Assembly (NCBI RefSeq): GCF_003018255.1
Contig: NZ_CP027440.1
Reading direction: 5' to 3' (one strand)
DNA length: 64,000 bases
From: Escherichia coli
GTDB lineage: Bacteria > Pseudomonadota > Gammaproteobacteria > Enterobacterales > Enterobacteriaceae
The notes beneath the pieces are model-generated. The model was not told the DNA's origin. It worked only from the letters and a program-made list of their open reading frames with translations, and did no database searches. Position numbers and translations under genes: made by a program. Shown here one piece after another: positions 1,696 to 49,804 of the stretch (position 1 is the first letter of the stretch; every line of letters starts with the position of its first letter).

Positions 1696-3348
1696 ATGAA
1701 ATTATTGCAGCGGGGCGTGGCGTTAGCACTGTTAACCACATTTACACTGGCGAGTGAAGCTGCTCTGGCGTATGAGCAGGATAAAACCTACAAAATTACA
1801 GTTCTGCATACCAATGATCATCATGGGCATTTTTGGCGCAATGAATATGGCGAATATGGTCTGGCGGCGCAAAAAACGCTGGTGGATGGTATCCGCAAAG
1901 AGGTTGCGGCTGAAGGCGGTAGCGTGCTGCTACTTTCCGGTGGCGACATTAACACTGGCGTGCCCGAGTCTGACTTACAGGATGCCGAACCTGATTTTCG
2001 CGGCATGAATCTGGTGGGCTACGATGCGATGGCAATCGGTAATCATGAATTTGATAACCCGCTCACCGTATTACGCCAGCAGGAAAAGTGGGCAAAGTTC
2101 CCGTTACTTTCTGCCAATATCTACCAGAAAAGTACCGGCGAGCGCCTGTTTAAACCATGGGCGCTGTTTAAGCGTCAGGATCTGAAAATTGCCGTTATTG
2201 GCCTGACGACGGATGACACAGCGAAGTTAGGCAACCCAGAAAACTTCACCGATATTGAGTTCCGTAAGCCCGCCGATGAAGCGAAGCTGGTGATTCAGGA
2301 GCTGCAACAGACAGAAAAGCCAGACATTATTATCGCGGCGACCCATATGGGGCATTACGACAATGGTGAGCACGGCTCTAATGCACCGGGCGATGTGGAG
2401 ATGGCACGCGCGCTGCCTGCCGGATCGCTGGCGATGATCGTCGGTGGTCACTCGCAAGATCCGGTCTGCATGGCGGCAGAAAACAAAAAACAGGTCGATT
2501 ACGTGCCGGGTACGCCATGTAAACCGGATCAACAAAACGGCATCTGGATTGTGCAGGCGCATGAGTGGGGCAAATACGTGGGGCGGGCCGACTTTGAGTT
2601 TCGTAATGGCGAAATGAAAATGGTTAACTACCAGCTGATTCCGGTGAACCTGAAGAAGAAAGTGACCTGGGAAGACGGGAAAAGCGAGCGTGTGCTTTAT
2701 ACCCCTGAAATCGCTGAAAACCAGCAAATGATCTCGCTGTTATCGCCGTTCCAGAACAAAGGCAAAGCGCAGCTGGAAGTGAAAATAGGCGAAACCAATG
2801 GTCGTCTGGAAGGCGATCGTGACAAAGTACGTTTTGTACAGACCAATATGGGGCGGTTGATTCTGGCAGCACAAATGGATCGCACTGGTGCCGACTTTGC
2901 GGTGATGAGCGGAGGCGGAATTCGTGATTCTATCGAAGCAGGTGATATCAGCTATAAAAACGTACTGAAAGTGCAGCCATTCGGCAATGTGGTGGTGTAT
3001 GCCGACATGACCGGTAAAGAGGTGATTGATTACCTGACCGCCGTCGCACAAATGAAGCCAGATTCAGGTGCCTACCCGCAATTTGCCAACGTTAGCTTTG
3101 TGGCGAAAGACGGCAAACTCAACGACCTGAAAATCAAAGGCGAACCGGTCGATCCGGCGAAAACTTACCGCATGGCGACATTAAACTTCAATGCCACCGG
3201 CGGGGATGGCTATCCGCGCCTTGATAACAAACCGGGCTATGTGAATACCGGCTTTATTGATGCCGAAGTGCTGAAAGCGTATATCCAGAAAAGCTCGCCG
3301 CTGGATGTGAGTGTTTATGAACCGAAAGGTGAGGTGAGCTGGCAGTAA
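1696..3348 (+). CDS. ushA: UDP-sugar hydrolase / 5'-nucleotidase (periplasmic)
   Basis: 550-aa ORF with a signal peptide. It has the metallophosphoesterase motifs DHHGH and GNHEFD and matches UshA. Confidence 0.95.
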   Translation: MKLLQRGVALALLTTFTLASEAALAYEQDKTYKITVLHTNDHHGHFWRNEYGEYGLAAQKTLVDGIRKEVAAEGGSVLLLSGGDINTGVPESDLQDAEPDFRGMNLVGYDAMAIGNHEFDNPLTVLRQQEKWAKFPLLSANIYQKSTGERLFKPWALFKRQDLKIAVIGLTTDDTAKLGNPENFTDIEFRKPADEAKLVIQELQQTEKPDIIIAATHMGHYDNGEHGSNAPGDVEMARALPAGSLAMIVGGHSQDPVCMAAENKKQVDYVPGTPCKPDQQNGIWIVQAHEWGKYVGRADFEFRNGEMKMVNYQLIPVNLKKKVTWEDGKSERVLYTPEIAENQQMISLLSPFQNKGKAQLEVKIGETNGRLEGDRDKVRFVQTNMGRLILAAQMDRTGADFAVMSGGGIRDSIEAGDISYKNVLKVQPFGNVVVYADMTGKEVIDYLTAVAQMKPDSGAYPQFANVSFVAKDGKLNDLKIKGEPVDPAKTYRMATLNFNATGGDGYPRLDNKPGYVNTGFIDAEVLKAYIQKSSPLDVSVYEPKGEVSWQ

Positions 3349-3355
3349 TCCGAAA

Positions 3356-3379
3356 GTGCCGGATGTTCGCATCCGGCAC
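3356..3379. repeat. REP-like hairpin between convergent ushA and ybaK; probable bidirectional terminator
   Basis: GTGCCGGAT-GTTCGC-ATCCGGCAC is a perfect 9-bp stem containing the GCCGGATG REP signature. Confidence 0.55.
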
Positions 3380-3384
3380 AATGC

Positions 3385-3879
<495 letters not shown>

Positions 3880-43458: not shown

Positions 43459-43473
43459 ACCTGAATTGACTAC

Positions 43474-43500
43474 AAAAAAAGCCACGGAATAAACCGTGGC
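43474..43500 (-). terminator. Rho-independent terminator after allE
   Basis: On the minus strand, GCCACGG-TTTATT-CCGTGGC followed by T7. Confidence 0.7.
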
Positions 43501-43542
43501 AAAATCCAACATAGCTAAAAATAATCAGGCGAGTGGTATGAC

Positions 43543-44479: not shown

Positions 44480-44500
44480 GTGATGACCGGAATCAAAATT

Positions 44501-45730
44501 ATGAGCAGAGCACTTAACAAACTGAGTGACACACAGCTAAGGAAAATCAACGGCACACCCGCCCAAAAAACAGCCTTTCTTAATGACGGTGGAAACCTGA
44601 GCGTCAGGCATTCAACCAGCGGCCTTTTAACCTGGTATTTCACATACAGGGCCGGAACGGGAAGAGGGACACAACCTGAACGCGTTAAGCTGGGAAATTA
44701 TCCCGATCTGAGCCTGAAAGCAGCCAGGGAAAAAGCCGCACAGTGTCGCGCATGGCTGGCTGAGGGGAAAAATCCACGCTATGAACTGAATTACACCATG
44801 CAGGAAGCGTTAAAGCCTGCAACGGTTGGCGATGCGCTCACCTACTGGCTTGAGTCGTACGCAAAGGAAAAGCGCACAGATTACGAATCACTGAAAAGCC
44901 GGATCAATAAAAACATAATCATCAAAATTGGTGCTATGCCGCTGGATAAATGCGAGCTACGGCACTGGCTGGCCTGTTTTGATCAGGTGGCAAAGCGAAC
45001 ACCTGTTACTGCCGGATTCTTGCTACAGACATGCAAACAGGCGCTTAAATTCTGCCGTAGGCGGCGCTATGCAATCAGCAACGTTCTGGACGATCTGAAC
45101 GTGGCGGACGTTGGGAAAAAACCGGATATAAGCGAACGTGTCTTAAGCACCAAAGAACTGGGCGAGTTATTGCAGGCGCTGGATAAAAAAATATTTTCTC
45201 CTTACTACGTCGCGTTAATCCGCCTCCTGATTGTCTTCGGAGCCAGGACGGTAGAACTGAGGTTATCGGAGATCAGCGAGTGGGATTTTACCGAAATGCT
45301 ATGGACCGTTCCGAAGGAGCACAGCAAAACGAAGGTTGCAATATTCCGGCCCATACCGGAAGCGATCCTGCCGTTCGTCACGCGGCTGGTGGAGCAGAAC
45401 AGGCACACGGGCTTATTACTGGGGGAAGTGAAACAGGAGGCTAGCGTATCGCAGTACGGCAGATTAGCGCACAGGAGGCTAAAACACCTTCAATGGTCAT
45501 TGCATGACATCCGGCGCACCTTTACAACGATGCTGAATGATTTGGGCGTGGATCCTCACGTCGTGGAGCAGCTTACAGGTCATCAGATGCCAGGGATGCA
45601 ACGAGTCTATAACCACTCCCGTTATCTCGATGCGAAACGTGATGCGCTGGATATGTGGACGGAGCGGTTAGGGATACTGGCGGGAGCACATGAAAACGTA
45701 ACCACGCTACCAGTAACCAGAATAAAATAA
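44501..45730 (+). CDS. int: Tyrosine integrase, P4-like (N-terminal arm-binding domain)
   Basis: MSRALNKLSDTQLRKI...LSVRHS..G.LTWYFTYR N-terminus typical of P4-type integrases. C-terminal HDIRRT...GH....Y catalytic region. The ORF track begins 7 codons earlier at GTG 44480. Confidence 0.9.
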   Translation: MSRALNKLSDTQLRKINGTPAQKTAFLNDGGNLSVRHSTSGLLTWYFTYRAGTGRGTQPERVKLGNYPDLSLKAAREKAAQCRAWLAEGKNPRYELNYTMQEALKPATVGDALTYWLESYAKEKRTDYESLKSRINKNIIIKIGAMPLDKCELRHWLACFDQVAKRTPVTAGFLLQTCKQALKFCRRRRYAISNVLDDLNVADVGKKPDISERVLSTKELGELLQALDKKIFSPYYVALIRLLIVFGARTVELRLSEISEWDFTEMLWTVPKEHSKTKVAIFRPIPEAILPFVTRLVEQNRHTGLLLGEVKQEASVSQYGRLAHRRLKHLQWSLHDIRRTFTTMLNDLGVDPHVVEQLTGHQMPGMQRVYNHSRYLDAKRDALDMWTERLGILAGAHENVTTLPVTRIK

Positions 45731-45770
45731 TTTTTTTCGTGTTTTTTCAGTATGCGCATACTGGATAAGT

Positions 45771-45825
45771 GCACAGATACAACGTGAAACAATGTGCAAC
45801 AACGTGACACAATCATGAACAAGAG
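45771..45825 (-). promoter_or_regulatory. Five 10-bp-phased TTGT repeats (inverted orientation) in the int-alpA gap
   Basis: ACAA recurs at 45779, 45789, 45799, 45809 and 45819. The run includes ACAACGTGAAAC and ACAACGTGACAC. Confidence 0.45.
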
Positions 45826-46094
45826 GCCAAAAAGAATACAGATTTATAAGTTACTGATTTTTATTGCTCAACTGGTTTTTTATACATTAGCGAATTACGC
45901 GTTAAAGCGTGCGAAAAAAGGCATAAAACAAGATTTTATGCCTTTGTATTAACATGAATTTAAATGATTTTATCCTGATTATTCCTCTTTCTGTAAACCA
46001 TACGACATCAACATTTGCCATTCACCACACTAGCGGGAACAATACGACACAATAAGACACCTGATGACTCTTTAAGAAACGAAAGGGGGCAATA

Positions 46095-46283
46095 GTGTTA
46101 AGCACTGATCGGTTTATACGTGAAAAAGAATGCGAAAAGCTAACAGGCCTTAGCCGCTCATGCCGCTACCGCCTGGAAAAGGCCGGACAATTCCCATCAC
46201 GTCGTAAACTTGGCGGGCGTTCTGTTGGCTGGTCTTTATCTGAGGTTTTGGCCTGGAAGGATAGCTGCAAGGCAGTTCACTAA
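46095..46283 (+). CDS. alpA: AlpA-family (MerR-like/excisionase-type) regulator
   Basis: 62-aa ORF with a GTG start after AAGGGGG. The pattern RFIREKECEKLTGLSRSCRYRLEKAGQFPSRRKLGGRSVGWSLSEVLAW is typical of AlpA. Confidence 0.85.
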   Translation: MLSTDRFIREKECEKLTGLSRSCRYRLEKAGQFPSRRKLGGRSVGWSLSEVLAWKDSCKAVH

Positions 46284-46424
46284 AAAGACTGGCGGCACAC
46301 AGTCGCCACACATCCACTAATACAGAGATATAACTATGAAGATTGAATATGCGCCCGAACGTGGGCGGGGATTCGTTCGCCCTGGTGAAACTGAAAAACA
46401 ACAAAATTGGGGTTTTTCAGGCAT

Positions 46425-46452
46425 AAAAAAAGCGGCCCCGATATGGAGCCGC
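46425..46452 (-). terminator. Rho-independent terminator for the leftward arc-like operon
   Basis: On the minus strand, GCGGC-loop-GCCGC followed by T7. It lies inside the 248-aa plus-strand ORF, which argues against that ORF. Confidence 0.55.
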
Positions 46453-46526
46453 CTTTCTGAACAATTAACCTGCTGCGCCTTATGTGTATGTGATCCCAAA
46501 CATAAGCACGGGGATGATAGCCGCTA

Positions 46527-46724
46527 TCAGGCTGGTGGGCAATTCCTGTTTTGTCCGTATTGCGCCGCCATTTTCGCTCGTTCAGAGCGCGAATATTTTT
46601 TTAGAAACTCATCAAGGACAAAAGCGCATGGTGCGAATCTTTCTGATTCATGCTCGAGCGCCATATTTTCGTGCTCTCTGTTCGTTTTTTGCGATGGTGT
46701 ATCGCTTGATTCTTTGTTGGTCAT
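46527..46724 (-). CDS. Hypothetical 65-aa protein, second gene of the leftward operon
   Basis: ATG preceded by AGGT. Followed about 70 nt later by the minus-strand terminator. No family was recognised. Confidence 0.4.
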   Translation of the reverse strand: MTNKESSDTPSQKTNREHENMALEHESERFAPCAFVLDEFLKKYSRSERAKMAAQYGQNRNCPPA

Positions 46725-46781
46725 TGTGTGTACCTGTAAAGCAATGCGCCGTAGTACCTCACACCACGGCGCTGATAGTTT

Positions 46782-46973
46782 TTATCCTTTGGGGTCTATG
46801 CCGCGCCGCTTTAGTTCAGTGCGCCCCAACTCTTTAAGCCAGTTGGCTAGGCTTATGCCGTCGCTCTGTGCTTCTTTGTCGAATTGCTCTTTTAGCTCTG
46901 GAGAAATTCGCATTCTGAATTGTGGGGATTGCCCGTCCCCTTTAGGGCTTTTATCGCGTTTGATTGTTGACAA
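46782..46973 (-). CDS. Arc-like ribbon-helix-helix repressor
   Basis: SPQFRMRISPELKEQFDKEAQSDGISLANWLKELGRTEL aligns by eye with P22 Arc MPQFNLRWPREVLDLVRKVAEENGRSVNSEIYQRVMESF. The TTG start at 46973 follows AGGTGG; the ORF-track start at 47054 would put the operator palindromes in coding sequence. Confidence 0.6.
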   Translation of the reverse strand: MSTIKRDKSPKGDGQSPQFRMRISPELKEQFDKEAQSDGISLANWLKELGRTELKRRGIDPKG

Positions 46974-47016
46974 GTGGCCACCTATTAAATTAGCCTTTCT
47001 ATTGTTAGGTGGCCAC
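46974..47016. promoter_or_regulatory. Twin palindromic operators (GTGGCCAC) in the divergent control region
   Basis: ATTGTTGACAAGTGGCCACCTA (core 46974-46981) and ATTGTTAGGTGGCCACCTTA (core 47009-47016), 35 bp centre to centre. Confidence 0.4.
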
Positions 47017-47107
47017 CTTAACACAAGAGCACTTAAAAAAGCAAAGCCCCGCAAGTGCCATTACCACTCGCAGGGCTTCTAACCAACAACGTAAACGAGG
47101 AGCCGTT

Positions 47108-47308
47108 ATGGTTGCCGTAAATCATATACCACACCTTGTACACACACAAACTGCCTTTGTGTGGCGTTTTCTGGCCCTGAGTGCCGGAGAATCTCAAATC
47201 ATCCACGTAACCGCCTGGACGGAACGCGAAGCGCGTAACCGTTGCCCGTCCGGTTGTGTTGCTGTATTTGCCGCCCGTATTCGTCAGGGGGAAACCTATG
47301 CACAATAA
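47108..47308 (+). CDS. Icd-like (host cell division inhibitor-like) small protein, first gene of the rightward operon
   Basis: ATG after GAGGAG gives 66 aa. The motif ..VWRFLALSAGESQIIHVTAWTEREARNRCP.GCVAVFAARI resembles Icd-like proteins of P4-type elements (from memory). Confidence 0.65.
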   Translation: MVAVNHIPHLVHTQTAFVWRFLALSAGESQIIHVTAWTEREARNRCPSGCVAVFAARIRQGETYAQ

Positions 47309-47753: not shown

Positions 47754-48053
47754 ATGAAACTTAAATATTCTGGCTTAACTGCCAGTGGCAAAACTCGCAC
47801 TAAATTCATGCGCGGTGATATTTACCGCGACCAGTACGGCGGCACGGTAATGATTAAGGGCGTGGAGGAACGGCGCGTAACTTACCGCCGTGAAGGTTAC
47901 GAATATGATTGCGTGATGCCCGTTTATCAGTTCGACCGTGATTTTTCTCTGGTGCAGGCAGCGCAACGCAGCAAGCCCACCAGCAGGGAGAAAGCACGCG
48001 CCAATATTCAGGAAATAAAAAAGATGCTTAACGTATTCAGGGGTAAAAAATGA
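47754..48053 (+). CDS. DUF4222-like small protein
   Basis: 99 aa. The pattern YRD.YG..V.I.GVE..RVTYRREGY...CVMP...F.R.F recalls DUF4222 of P4-like islands (from memory). Confidence 0.55.
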   Translation: MKLKYSGLTASGKTRTKFMRGDIYRDQYGGTVMIKGVEERRVTYRREGYEYDCVMPVYQFDRDFSLVQAAQRSKPTSREKARANIQEIKKMLNVFRGKK

Positions 48054-49804
48054 AACTGGCACCGAACGTAAAACAGCAGTCACGCGGCATAAAACACAAA
48101 GAAACAGAAGTCATTATTTTTGCGGGTAGTGATGCCTGGTCACACGCAAAACAATGGCAGGAACATGACGCGCGTATGGCCGGAGATAATGAGCCTCCTG
48201 TGTGGCTTGGGGAGCAGCAGTTATCAGAACTGGATAAGCTGCAAATTGTGCCGGAAGGCAGAAAATCCGTGCGCATATTCAGGGCCGGATATCTTGCACC
48301 AGTAATGATAAAGGCGATTGGTCAAAAGCTGGCGGCGGCTGGTGTACAGGATGCAAATTTTTATCCTGAGGGTATGCACGGCAAGGAGGTGCAGAACTGG
48401 CGCGAATACCTGGCCCGTGAACGCCAGAATCTTTCTGATGGTCTGGTCATTGAGCTTCCGGTAAAGCAAAAGGCGCAACTTTCGCAGATGGCGGACAGTG
48501 AGCGCGCGCAGCTGCTTGCCGATCGCTTTGATGGCGTTTGCGTACATCCTGAAAGTGAAATTGTTCACGTATGGCGCGGCGGGGTATGGTGTCCGGTCAG
48601 CACAATGGAACTTAGCCGCGAAATGGTGGCGATCTATTCAGAGCACAGGGCCACTTTCAGCAAGCGCGTAATCAATAACGCCGTGGAAGCGTTAAAAGTT
48701 ATTGCCGAACCAATGGGCGAGCCGTCCGGCGATTTGCTGCCGTTCGCCAATGGTGCGCTTGACCTGAAAACGGGGGAATTTTCCCCGCACACGCCGGAGA
48801 ACTGGATCACCACGCACAACGGCATTGAGTACACGCCACCAGCACCAGGGGAGAATATCCGCGACAACGCGCCAAACTTTCATAAATGGCTTGAGCACGC
48901 AGCCGGAAAAGACCCGCGCAAGATGATGCGTATATGTGCCGCGCTGTACATGATTATGGCGAACCGGTACGACTGGCAGATGTTTATTGAGGCCACCGGA
49001 GACGGCGGGAGCGGTAAAAGTACATTCACACACATAGCCAGCCTTCTGGCAGGGAAACAGAACACGGTAAGCGCTGAAATGACATCGCTTGATGATGCTG
49101 GTGGACGTGCGCAGGTTGTCGGGAGTCGTCTTATCGTCCTGGCTGACCAGCCGAAATATACAGGCGAAGGAACGGGCATCAAGAAAATCACGGGCGGCGA
49201 CCCCGTGGAAATTAACCCGAAATATGAGAAGCGTTTTACGGCGGTAATCAGGGCGGTGGTGCTGGCTACCAACAATAACCCGATGATATTCACCGAACGG
49301 GCCGGAGGTGTGTCACGTCGTCGCGTAATTTTCCGTTTCGACAATATCGTCAGTGAGGCCGAAAAAGACAGGGAGCTACCGGAAAAGATTGCGGCTGAAA
49401 TCCCTGTCATTATCCGCCGATTGCTGGCGAACTTTACCGACCCTGAGAAGGCACGGGCTTTACTACTGGAACAGCGTGACGGTGATGAAGCTCTGGCAAT
49501 AAAGCAACAGACGGATCCGGTTATTGAGTTTTGCCAGTTCCTGAATTTTCTGGAGGAAGCACGCGGCCTGATGATGGGCGGCGGTGGCGATTCAGTGAAG
49601 TACACGACCAGGAACAGCCTTTACCGCGTCTATCTGGCGTTTATGGCATACGCAGGCAGGAGCAAACCGCTAAACGTGGCTGAGTTCAGCAAGGCCATGA
49701 AGCCAGCGGCGAAAGTTTACGGGCATGAATATATTACGCGAAAAGTTAAGGGAGTAACGCAGACCAACGCAATTACAACAGACGATTGCGACGCGTTTTT
49801 ATAA
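48050..49804 (+). CDS. P4-family primase / SF3 helicase replication protein (pri-rep)
   Basis: 584-aa ORF with Walker A GDGGSGKST and Walker B LIVLAD. D5-N-like region upstream. The iteron field follows immediately. Confidence 0.9.
   Translation: MKLAPNVKQQSRGIKHKETEVIIFAGSDAWSHAKQWQEHDARMAGDNEPPVWLGEQQLSELDKLQIVPEGRKSVRIFRAGYLAPVMIKAIGQKLAAAGVQDANFYPEGMHGKEVQNWREYLARERQNLSDGLVIELPVKQKAQLSQMADSERAQLLADRFDGVCVHPESEIVHVWRGGVWCPVSTMELSREMVAIYSEHRATFSKRVINNAVEALKVIAEPMGEPSGDLLPFANGALDLKTGEFSPHTPENWITTHNGIEYTPPAPGENIRDNAPNFHKWLEHAAGKDPRKMMRICAALYMIMANRYDWQMFIEATGDGGSGKSTFTHIASLLAGKQNTVSAEMTSLDDAGGRAQVVGSRLIVLADQPKYTGEGTGIKKITGGDPVEINPKYEKRFTAVIRAVVLATNNNPMIFTERAGGVSRRRVIFRFDNIVSEAEKDRELPEKIAAEIPVIIRRLLANFTDPEKARALLLEQRDGDEALAIKQQTDPVIEFCQFLNFLEEARGLMMGGGGDSVKYTTRNSLYRVYLAFMAYAGRSKPLNVAEFSKAMKPAAKVYGHEYITRKVKGVTQTNAITTDDCDAFL

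Follow-up and report, generated by a model that had tools for sequence, protein, structure and literature searches.

Several described systems come close to the locus considered here, a control region at positions 46,425 to 47,107 of a 64,000-nucleotide stretch of Escherichia coli DNA (contig NZ_CP027440.1, assembly GCF_003018255.1; this whole stretch is called the window). The region lies between the alpA gene of a satellite island and an icd-like gene that heads the replication operon of that island. In the immunity I region of phage P1 (c4 RNA - icd - ant), the RNA prevents an icd-type first gene from being translated and thereby gates what lies behind it. Immunity I of phage P22 relies on two ribbon-helix-helix (RHH) repressors, Mnt and Arc, which control ant together with the antisense RNA sar (PMC2629481). 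In E. coli K-12, two silent changes in an embedded -10 element, which turn CATTCT into CACTCC, abolish the antisense RNA SymR and de-repress SymE (Kawano et al. 2007; PMC1891008). The same study noted RHH genes beside some SymE homologues and proposed RNA-regulated and transcription-factor-regulated loci as alternatives to each other.

Islands related to the one in the window, among them EcCICFT073 and EcCIEDL933, belong to the phage-inducible chromosomal islands (PICIs). Their induction requires AlpA, and a helper phage triggers alpA expression (PMC6092414; bioRxiv 10.1101/2022.09.08.507074). AlpA is the only regulator known for these islands, and whether any global repressor exists has been called unclear (PMC6092414).

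Overall, the control region is best understood as an early-control switch of a capsid-forming PICI, in which two silencing layers converge on the first gene of the replication operon, a reading that is given a probability of about 0.7. One layer would be an Arc-like repressor acting at two inverted DNA boxes, and the other a cis-antisense RNA of the SymR family.

Judged from its genes, the island itself is a capsid-forming PICI close to EcCIEDL933. The integrase gene (44480-45730 in the open reading frame (ORF) table of the 64-kb window) is followed by alpA (46095-46283; Pfam Phage_AlpA, E=5e-18), the control module, the icd-like gene, a DUF4222 gene, the primase gene (48050-49804) and a major-capsid-like ORF from 51330. 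A capsid-forming PICI carries int, alpA, primase-replication genes and its own capsid genes in this order, and so does the window. The 1.1-kb control region is 89% identical to that of Sp7/CP-933C of E. coli O157:H7, which has the same gene order and is the prototype capsid-forming PICI EcCIEDL933 (bioRxiv 10.1101/2022.09.08.507074). Parts of the region were found in 1154 of 5426 complete E. coli genomes.

The features on which the argument depends are as follows.

46782-46973, minus strand: gene for an Arc-like RHH protein of 63 aa, predicted repressor, with a TTG start and the N-terminus MSTIKRDKSPKGDGQSPQFRMRISPE... (family, profiles, fold)
46967-46972, plus strand: -35 element TTGACA of the rightward promoter P_R, overlapping the RHH start codon of the opposite strand (sequence, positional conservation)
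46972-46984, no strand: operator box O1, predicted, AAGTGGCCACCTA, core GTGGCCAC at 46974-46981 (repeat finder, pattern search, covariation)
46991-46996, plus strand: predicted -10 element TAGCCT of P_R, 18 nt after the -35 element and between the boxes (positional conservation of TAnnnT/CAnnnT)
47006-47018, no strand: operator box O2, predicted, TAGGTGGCCACCT, core at 47009-47016, inverted relative to O1 and at about +1 to +15 of P_R (repeat finder, pattern search, covariation)
47015-47023, minus strand: tentative extended -10 element TGTTAAGGT of the leftward RHH promoter P_L, overlapping O2 (inference only)
47031-47113, minus strand (47113->47031): predicted SymR-family cis-antisense RNA of about 80 nt (covariance models, covariation, folds)
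47097-47308, plus strand: Shine-Dalgarno sequence GAGGAG (47097-47102) and icd-like gene, with ATG at 47108 and stop at 47308 (phage_ICD_like match)
47121-47149, minus strand: predicted antisense promoter within icd-like codons 5-14, with -35 TTGTGT (47149->47144), a 17-nt spacer and -10 TATGAT (47126->47121) (offset conservation)

An Arc/Mnt-like protein

By family, profile and modelled structure, the 63-aa protein is an Arc/Mnt-like RHH DNA-binding protein and a predicted repressor. It matches PHROG 228, 'Arc-like repressor' (E=2e-6), and a PDB profile search with the RHH family gave P22 Arc (E=0.038) and Mnt (E=0.046) as the two best matches, aligned through a PQF-x-x-R strand. An AlphaFold2 (AF2) model of the monomer, with a predicted local distance difference test score (pLDDT) of 81.8, has helices at 25-37 and 42-56. 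Foldseek recognizes the RHH fold in this model, with the Arc structures 1myl, 1par, 1bdv and 1baz as the best matches (probability 0.97-1.0, template modelling (TM) score on target 0.72-0.84), followed by other RHH proteins. The Pfam cut-offs for RHH families were missed, narrowly for HicB (PF05534; 20.2 bits vs 21) and by more for Arc (PF03869; 12.4-13.1 bits vs 20.4).

Comparison was made with 67 loci that encode relatives of the RHH protein, taken from one genome per species and oriented like the window; 63 of them are distinct. The proteins are 63-64 aa long across Enterobacterales (Providencia, Xenorhabdus, Erwinia, Proteus, Morganella, Dickeya, Pantoea and others), and their N-terminus, MSTIKRDKSPKG, is conserved across genera. 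The frame also carries a coding signal, with a synonymous:non-synonymous ratio of 310:204 and 447 of 724 differences at codon position 3. A 90-aa version of the ORF, with its start at 47054, was rejected because EDL933 has an in-frame TGA within the supposed extension, upstream of the TTG at 46973, and because the extension is not conserved. The same two observations dispose of the possibility, raised in an earlier sequence-only reading of the window, that the boxes lie inside a longer translated ORF starting at 47054. That reading had also proposed a leftward operon of an Arc-like protein and a 65-aa protein, as well as an alignment of the RHH beta-strand with P22 Arc. The two genes of this operon were borne out by the matches to PHROG 228 and phrog_21027, to the Arc and Mnt entries of PDB and to the Arc structures found by Foldseek, and the alignment by the family profile, which pairs through PQF-x-x-R.

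The name given to this RHH family by NCBI, 'HicB family antitoxin', points to another role for the module, namely that of a toxin-antitoxin or addiction cassette that stabilizes the island. The first gene (Icd-like here, SymE in sister loci) would then be a toxin, kept in check both by the SymR-like RNA as a type I antitoxin and by the RHH repressor as an antitoxin in the style of type II. P1 Icd is, after all, a cell-division inhibitor. SymE-family toxins occupy the first-gene slot of many sister loci, and SymR is classed as an antitoxin (Rfam RF01809; PMC1891008). Such a role nonetheless seems unlikely. The 63-aa protein consists of an RHH domain only, with no HicB N-terminal domain and no HicA neighbor; its conserved neighbor is a divergent promoter, and the 65-aa gene lacks a Pfam match. 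The NCBI name can be explained by the shared RHH domain alone. Furthermore, the icd-like frame overlaps the next gene and stands in an operon that runs through to primase, and the first-gene slot also holds families that carry no toxin annotation. The addiction and switch readings are not exclusive, since a first gene that is toxic would leave the module in place as the operon's gate.

A predicted SymR-family antisense RNA

From its conserved structure and setting, the stem-loop that precedes the icd-like gene is the predicted terminator hairpin at the 3' end of a SymR-type cis-antisense RNA. The predicted transcription start site is A47113, 3 nt past the start codon, where TATGAT is followed by TTACGGC. 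The RNA would consist of a 5' hairpin (SL1, 47111->47083) with an anti-Shine-Dalgarno CUCC in its loop, a linker UGGUUAG, the stem-loop itself (SL2, 47079->47043) and a U6 tract (47040->47035), and it is complementary to the Shine-Dalgarno sequence and AUG of the icd-like gene. The homologous sites are NZ_CP008957.1 1682864-1682943 in EDL933 and NC_004431.1 about 1380771-1380851 in CFT073, both on the minus strand. On the minus strand of the window, SL2 has 15 continuous pairs followed by UGCUUUUUU, and the surrounding 96-nt stretch has a folding energy of -38.3 kcal/mol compared to -24.2 kcal/mol on the plus strand. A stem-loop at 47044-47078 with a U-tract on the minus strand, followed by the Shine-Dalgarno sequence and ATG of a rightward icd-like gene, had already been noticed, and these elements were found at 47043-47079, 47097 (GAGGAG) and 47108, respectively.

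The predicted antisense -10 element sits at a fixed offset in the related loci. The motif TAnnnT stands 10 nt from the complement of the start codon in 51 distinct loci and 4 nt from it in 10, which together make 61/63, and any other offset is represented by <=5 loci. The two loci outside this rule have mis-assigned start codons. The offset holds across unrelated first genes, including Icd-like genes, SymE-like genes, a 'LLKTPLG' family and a small Xenorhabdus ORF, and the first ten codons of these unrelated genes resemble each other in nucleotides because the antisense -10 element is embedded there. Thus, the embedded-promoter layout of SymR is found in the window, with the start of transcription predicted.

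SL2 recurs in this position in almost every locus, and in each case the minus-strand fold is the more stable one. When 46 sequences were aligned with MAFFT without regard to structure, RNAalifold recovered the hairpin, and 10 of its 11 pairs show compensatory double changes. Pairing is retained in 97.8% of cells, compared to 41-55% with a slid partner, and none of 500 shuffles reached the observed score. In SL1, CCAU pairs with GUGG/UUGG of the linker, and the anti-Shine-Dalgarno CUCC is in the loop in 45 of 69 loci. The inner helix of SL1 is 97.6% paired, with all four pairs compensatory, in an alignment that was fitted to that helix. The linker UGGUUAG between the two hairpins is near-invariant.

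A covariance model (R2) was built from 22 sequences of other genera only, with a hand-given structure, and was searched with filters off. R2 locates the annotated K-12 SymR with its 5' end exactly right (match at 3336-3421; 27.3 bits, E=4e-6). Its search of the whole 64-kb window gave a single site, which lies on the minus strand at 47113->47031 (24.4 bits, E=3e-4). R2 replaced an earlier model (R1) whose automatic RNAalifold structure comprised only 7 pairs of the 5' hairpin and which was mostly sequence-based; R1 matches the window at 47034-47113 (E=4e-5) and K-12 SymR only in part.

The stem-loop also lies within the predicted 5' untranslated region of the P_R transcript, and it could accordingly act on the plus strand, in the icd-like leader, as an attenuator, a stability element or a processed immunity RNA like c4 or CI. 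C4 and isrK matches have been reported for some Gram-negative PICIs (PMC10111431), and the plus strand of the site has a weak likeness to R1162 antisense RNA (15 bits, E=1.3). Such a leader element is highly improbable. Read on the minus strand, the wobble positions of SL2 comprise 55 G-U pairs and 1 A-C; the G-U positions become C-A mismatches on the plus strand, and on this count a plus-strand function of SL2 is excluded. Plus-strand folds are weaker by 5-11 kcal/mol in nearly every locus, and they are followed by no U-tract. Rfam scans that covered the window, nine sister loci and also the 121-nt site by itself gave no significant family, with symR, C4 and isrK absent and no CI match; the C4 and isrK models had no match at E<=1 over 43-53 kb, nor at E<=10 over the site. 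Weak Rfam likenesses, at 12-17 bits, to plasmid countertranscribed RNAs (ctRNAs), to R1162 antisense RNA and to the rnk leader were set aside as generic two-hairpin resemblance. The general idea of RNA-level control of the icd-like gene, which had been put forward by analogy with c4 and CI, therefore survives, whereas the proposed family and strand do not, given the Rfam negatives, the wobble count and the SymR-type layout.

A second, full-scoring copy of the SymR-like RNA (R1, 82.8 bits) is present about 1.9 kb from the first in a Superficieibacter locus (L043, 4788-4869, plus strand).

Predicted operator boxes and divergent promoters

Two palindromic boxes, AGTGGCCACCT at 46973-46983 and GGTGGCCACCT at 47008-47018, lie at the 5' end of the RHH gene with cores 35 bp apart. 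They are the sole matches to GGTGGCCACCT in 64 kb when one mismatch is allowed. A count of two sites is reached by 3 of 100 shuffles and is only modestly unusual by itself, so the significance of the boxes comes from comparative data rather than from the site count. The two boxes and their spacing agree with what the sequence-only reading had described; its picture of near-identical twins is better replaced by that of an inverted pair, GTGGCCACCTA-N21-TAGGTGGCCAC.

The layout is near-constant in the 67 loci. The RHH start with its overlapping TTGACA is followed by box 1, a (T/C)AnnnT 17-18 nt from TTGACA, the inverted box 2, the hairpin, CTAACCA, a Shine-Dalgarno sequence and the first rightward gene, which begins about 135-140 nt from the RHH start. 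TTGACA (or TTGTCA) stands at the P_R -35 position in most of the 63 distinct loci, and 52 of the 63 also have (T/C)AnnnT 16-19 nt downstream of it; some relatives have better -10 hexamers (TAATAT, TATAGT, TAGTAT). The predicted start of P_R is near 47003. O1 sits in the P_R spacer and covers the Shine-Dalgarno sequence of the RHH gene (AGGTGG). In the other direction, TGnTAnnnT is found on the minus strand in 40 of the 63 distinct loci, mostly at the same position, which makes it a candidate for P_L.

The core of the boxes changes together with the beta-strand of the RHH protein. Strands with Q-R-M go with GG(C/T)CAC (9/9 loci), T-Q-I/M with ACGTAC (21/22), M/L-N-V with CTATAC (4/4), P-H-M with GTACAC (2/2) and A-Q-I/V with ACACAC (4/5). 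Within any locus both boxes share one core. Covariation of the core with the strand P-x-F-x-x-R argues strongly for a predicted repressor-operator pair, as does the fact that the core is particular to each RHH clade and the same in the two boxes; the earlier proposal that the boxes are the RHH operator is upheld to this extent. E. coli PICIs that encode a YlcI/YnfO-type protein instead carry different repeated boxes at the same positions, along with near-consensus promoters such as TTGACG-17-TAATAT. Across these comparisons, the slot pattern is one of putative exchangeable repressor-operator alleles.

RHH binding to the boxes is a prediction, and AlpA is the only regulator that has been shown to act on these islands (PMC6092414). 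It could therefore be supposed that the boxes are bound by AlpA or by a helper-phage protein, or that they are replication iterons, with the RHH protein acting elsewhere. There is little to recommend this view. The box core tracks the beta-strand variant of the RHH protein across genera, islands of the YlcI/YnfO type have unrelated boxes in the same slot, and the boxes are placed on promoter elements rather than in the replication-origin region downstream of primase.

A competing open reading frame

RefSeq annotates a 247-aa plus-strand ORF opposite the RHH and 65-aa genes (46336-47082), with counterparts in EDL933 (WP_001304194.1; L003, 3042-3785) and Sakai (ECs_1576; L001, 6042-6785), which the sequence-only reading had left unconsidered. 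The view that this 247/248-aa ORF is the real gene and the minus-strand ORFs its shadows can be dismissed as most improbable, since, although it is called by the NCBI Prokaryotic Genome Annotation Pipeline (PGAP) and by the Sakai annotation, remains uninterrupted in the window, in EDL933 and in a handful of further loci, and differs between window and EDL933 by indels that are multiples of three, it has no match in Pfam, NCBIfam or PHROGs, its frame stays open over just 96-250 nt in the majority of related loci, it has a synonymous:non-synonymous ratio of 244:264 compared to 310:204 for the RHH frame, its stop codon falls in the conserved CTAACC linker of the antisense RNA, and PGAP annotates the minus-strand genes in JNE151685, RM9387, XYEH3783 and CFT073. 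The ORF was rejected as a gene on these grounds and is probably a spurious shadow ORF.

Some database 'icd-like' proteins also seem to be extended by this ORF. In XYEH3783, PGAP has a partial 'icd-like protein' over the stretch; phrog_29966 (188 aa) aligns with the Icd-like protein through just its last 60 positions.

Points that weigh against the switch

Several observations count against reading the region as a two-layer switch. Work on sister islands presents AlpA as an activator that is required and describes no repressor (PMC6092414). The promoters are all predicted from consensus, and the transcript, the 5' ends and the binding are likewise predictions. In the window, the P_R -10 (TAGCCT) is weak, as is the antisense -35 (TTGTGT), and both fall below the 9-of-12 threshold of a promoter scan, which picked up none of the three proposed promoters in the window; the promoters rest on positional conservation. 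The operator and the repressor gene are adjacent, and part of their covariation could reflect joint inheritance rather than selection. However, linkage alone would less easily account for the identical cores that the two boxes carry in each lineage. The RHH proteins of the window and EDL933 are nearly identical, yet the central base of both boxes differs (GTGGCCAC vs GTGGTCAC), so the protein evidently does not read this position. In the AF2 monomer model there are two helices and no DSSP strand, which can be attributed to an RHH sheet that forms only in the dimer.

The case for SymR kinship has weak points of its own. R1 gave only E=0.1 on K-12 SymR, and the E-values of both R1 and R2 are rough. 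Rfam symR (RF01809) has no match at the site, whether in a 10-kb search at E<=1 or in a 121-nt search at E<=10. The same model finds K-12 symR at 95 bits and misses a SymE-linked sister locus too. Since R2 unites the site with K-12 SymR while Rfam symR misses it, the predicted RNA is a divergent SymR relative outside the curated family.

How the switch might work

In the first layer, as suggested by sequence and covariation, the weak leftward promoter P_L would give an RHH mRNA with a short leader, whose Shine-Dalgarno sequence AGGTGG lies within O1. The 63-aa Arc/Mnt-like product would bind the two inverted boxes, one located in the spacer downstream of the P_R -35 element and the other over the start site. 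From these positions, bound RHH protein should exclude RNA polymerase. Because the boxes also cover the RHH Shine-Dalgarno sequence and the probable RHH promoter, the protein should limit its own synthesis as well.

In the second layer, by homology with E. coli SymR, the promoter in icd-like codons 5-14 would drive an antisense RNA of about 80 nt. This RNA, whose first hairpin would present the anti-Shine-Dalgarno sequence, should pair with any leaky P_R transcript across the Shine-Dalgarno sequence and AUG and block icd-like translation. Stops and starts overlap along the operon, so expression of the downstream genes should fall too. The RHH protein would plausibly add a layer of control on top of AlpA, and AlpA-mediated induction by a helper would have to override both layers. 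One speculation is that transcripts reading rightward out of alpA could cross the RHH operon in antisense, which is conceivable because every hairpin between alpA and the icd-like gene terminates on the minus strand only.

A broader and rather doubtful reading holds that the module is the missing master switch of Gram-negative PICIs. The divergent DNA-binding protein (Arc-like here, YlcI/YnfO-type in EcCICFT073), with its allele-specific operators, would be the counterpart of staphylococcal Stl. The SymR-family RNA would be a second, possibly trans-acting, layer of immunity or incompatibility, and AlpA-driven read-through antisense to the RHH mRNA would flip the switch. Finally, K-12 symE-symR would be the remnant of a domesticated satellite cassette, with LexA boxes in place of RHH operators.

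Other features of the region

Three further features belong to the leftward operon.

46425-46452, minus strand: intrinsic terminator of the RHH/65-aa operon, a 13-bp hairpin followed by U7 (fold)
46527-46724, minus strand: gene for a 65-aa acidic protein, second in the leftward operon (phrog_21027 match)
46746-46772, minus strand: intercistronic hairpin between the RHH gene and the 65-aa gene (terminator-like scan; -19.3 kcal/mol, z=-3.2)

The terminator, whose quality had been noted before, folds at -21 to -22.4 kcal/mol on the minus strand and at -14 to -14.6 kcal/mol on the plus strand. It is one of five hairpins between alpA and the icd-like gene (46287-46309, 46391-46420, 46425-46452, 46746-46772 and 47043-47079), all of which are terminator-like on the minus strand only, with G-U pairs and U-tracts there and mismatches without a U-tract on the plus strand. 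From this pattern, leftward transcription looks to be halted repeatedly ahead of alpA, and rightward read-through from alpA looks unobstructed.

The 65-aa protein matches phrog_21027, a phage family with no assigned function (E=2e-12), and has homologues of 62-68 aa with the core EHESERFAPCAF in EDL933, JNE151685 and RM9387. It matches no Pfam family at E<=1 and no PADLOC family, and a search for defence systems gave no PADLOC match of note. The gene has no tblastn match in 67 other-genus loci and pairs with either repressor type in E. coli, and the idea that it forms a conserved pair with the RHH gene was rejected on these grounds; by this distribution, the gene is apparently a variable add-on of E. 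coli PICIs.

The intercistronic hairpin at 46746-46772 could be a partial terminator or a stabilizer of the mRNA 3' end. It lies just 3' of the RHH stop, and an identical sequence stands behind the YlcI/YnfO-type gene of JNE151685 (L004, 3633-3670). It looks like a conserved junction between an exchangeable first gene and the second gene. The PICI of JNE151685 (L004, 2728-4243) has the control module twice in tandem. The first copy comprises an Arc-like RHH gene and a 67-aa gene, with its own promoter, hairpin and truncated icd-like start, and the second comprises a YlcI/YnfO-type protein and a 75-aa gene, three GTGGCTGACAC boxes and an intact icd-like gene.

Box cores with GTGGTCAC also occur in seven other genera (L007-L012, L049), again with nearly identical RHH proteins, and one of these loci, L011, has GTGACCAC in one box. 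The change of the central base, which is the same in both copies, makes each box a perfect palindrome and removes the TGA that closes the upstream frame elsewhere.

The icd-like gene matches the NCBIfam family phage_ICD_like (E=5.5e-18) and heads a rightward operon that runs via DUF4222 to primase, with overlapping stops and starts at 47298/47308, 47518/47528 and 48050/48053. Within its codons 12-19, over the antisense -35 element, is a plus-strand hairpin, CACACAAA/TTTGTGTG followed by GCGTTTTCTG (47143-47163), which resembles a weak attenuator and was not seen in Icd-like genes of other genera.

Four sister loci with a SymE-like first gene (L033, L048, L058, L068) adjoin tRNA-Sec (selC), and such loci appear to be selC-integrated islands with the same RHH/antisense cassette. 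In the host flank of the window, about 1 kb to the left of the integrase gene, an Rfam match to the enterobacterial small RNA STnc480 (43470-43536, plus strand; 84 bits) scores above the gathering threshold. The Rfam motif 'int-alpA RNA' is present in a Pantoea locus (L012, 5889-5957, minus strand; 45 bits) and was not found between int and alpA of the window (45731-46094; Rfam, E<=1).

Implications

The module offers candidates for what keeps Gram-negative PICIs silent, for the basis of immunity or incompatibility between islands, and for the obstacles that a helper must overcome. A combination of repressor-operator pair and antisense RNA would stand between alpA and the replication operon in EcCIEDL933, EcCICFT073 and islands of more than 20 genera. 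SymR, in turn, might be recast from a single chromosomal toxin-antitoxin RNA to a member of a widespread mobile cassette that gates Icd-like, SymE-like and other first genes. The series of beta-strands and operators, QRM-GGCCAC, TQI-ACGTAC, MNV-CTATAC and PHM-GTACAC, might provide a ready set of orthogonal small repressors. For annotation, the predicted antisense RNA is not in Rfam, and RefSeq carries a probably spurious 247-aa ORF over what are likely the real genes. A search of the PICI literature (small RNA in CP-933C, SymE/SymR in satellites, antisense RNA in PICIs), whose incomplete coverage is not proof of absence, found no description of the module.

Comparison with known systems

The islands EcCIEDL933 and EcCICFT073, prototypes of the capsid-forming PICIs and of the PICIs of E. 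coli, respectively, have the same gene order as the window, and EcCICFT073 also has the same hairpin, antisense -10 element and promoter layout. EcCICFT073 differs in carrying a YlcI/YnfO-type protein with GTGGGCCACACC boxes rather than an Arc-like RHH protein. Published accounts of these two islands do not describe the RHH protein, the boxes or the antisense RNA.

The c4 RNA of P1 and CI of P4 resemble the predicted RNA of the window in that an RNA gates an icd-type first gene. However, c4 and CI arise by processing of the sense transcript and work through short complementary boxes, whereas the RNA of the window would be transcribed from the opposite strand.

The RNA finds a much closer match in K-12, where SymR, too, is a cis-antisense RNA (about 77-83 nt in both cases) that lies opposite its target's 5' end. 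At symR, a TAGAAT -10 element is followed by seven bases and then by the start AGUCAU, so that the offset is 10 nt and the RNA starts 3 nt past the start codon, as predicted for the window. Both RNAs have a 5' hairpin with an anti-Shine-Dalgarno sequence, a UG(G/A)UUAG linker and a 3' hairpin, and they share the same fold and a common covariance model. SymE homologues are the target in sister loci, as in K-12. In the window, by contrast, the target is an Icd-like protein that heads a satellite replication operon, the sense promoter lies under an RHH operator pair instead of the LexA boxes of K-12, and the RNA ends in a canonical U-tract, which K-12 SymR lacks. RNA and RHH regulation, the alternatives proposed by Kawano et al. 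(2007), would occur together here.

The nearest analogue at the level of the whole system is immunity I of P22. The window differs from it in that the controlled gene is not an antirepressor, in having one RHH protein rather than two, and in having an operator of two boxes 35 bp apart where P22 has one 21-bp site. Both nonetheless pair an RHH repressor and its operator on overlapping divergent promoters with an antisense RNA at the ribosome-binding region of the controlled gene, and the RHH protein of the window is closest to Arc and Mnt in sequence and fold, including the PQF-x-x-R strand. Since the boxes of the window overlap both promoters, binding of the RHH protein should shut both, as Arc and Mnt do in P22.

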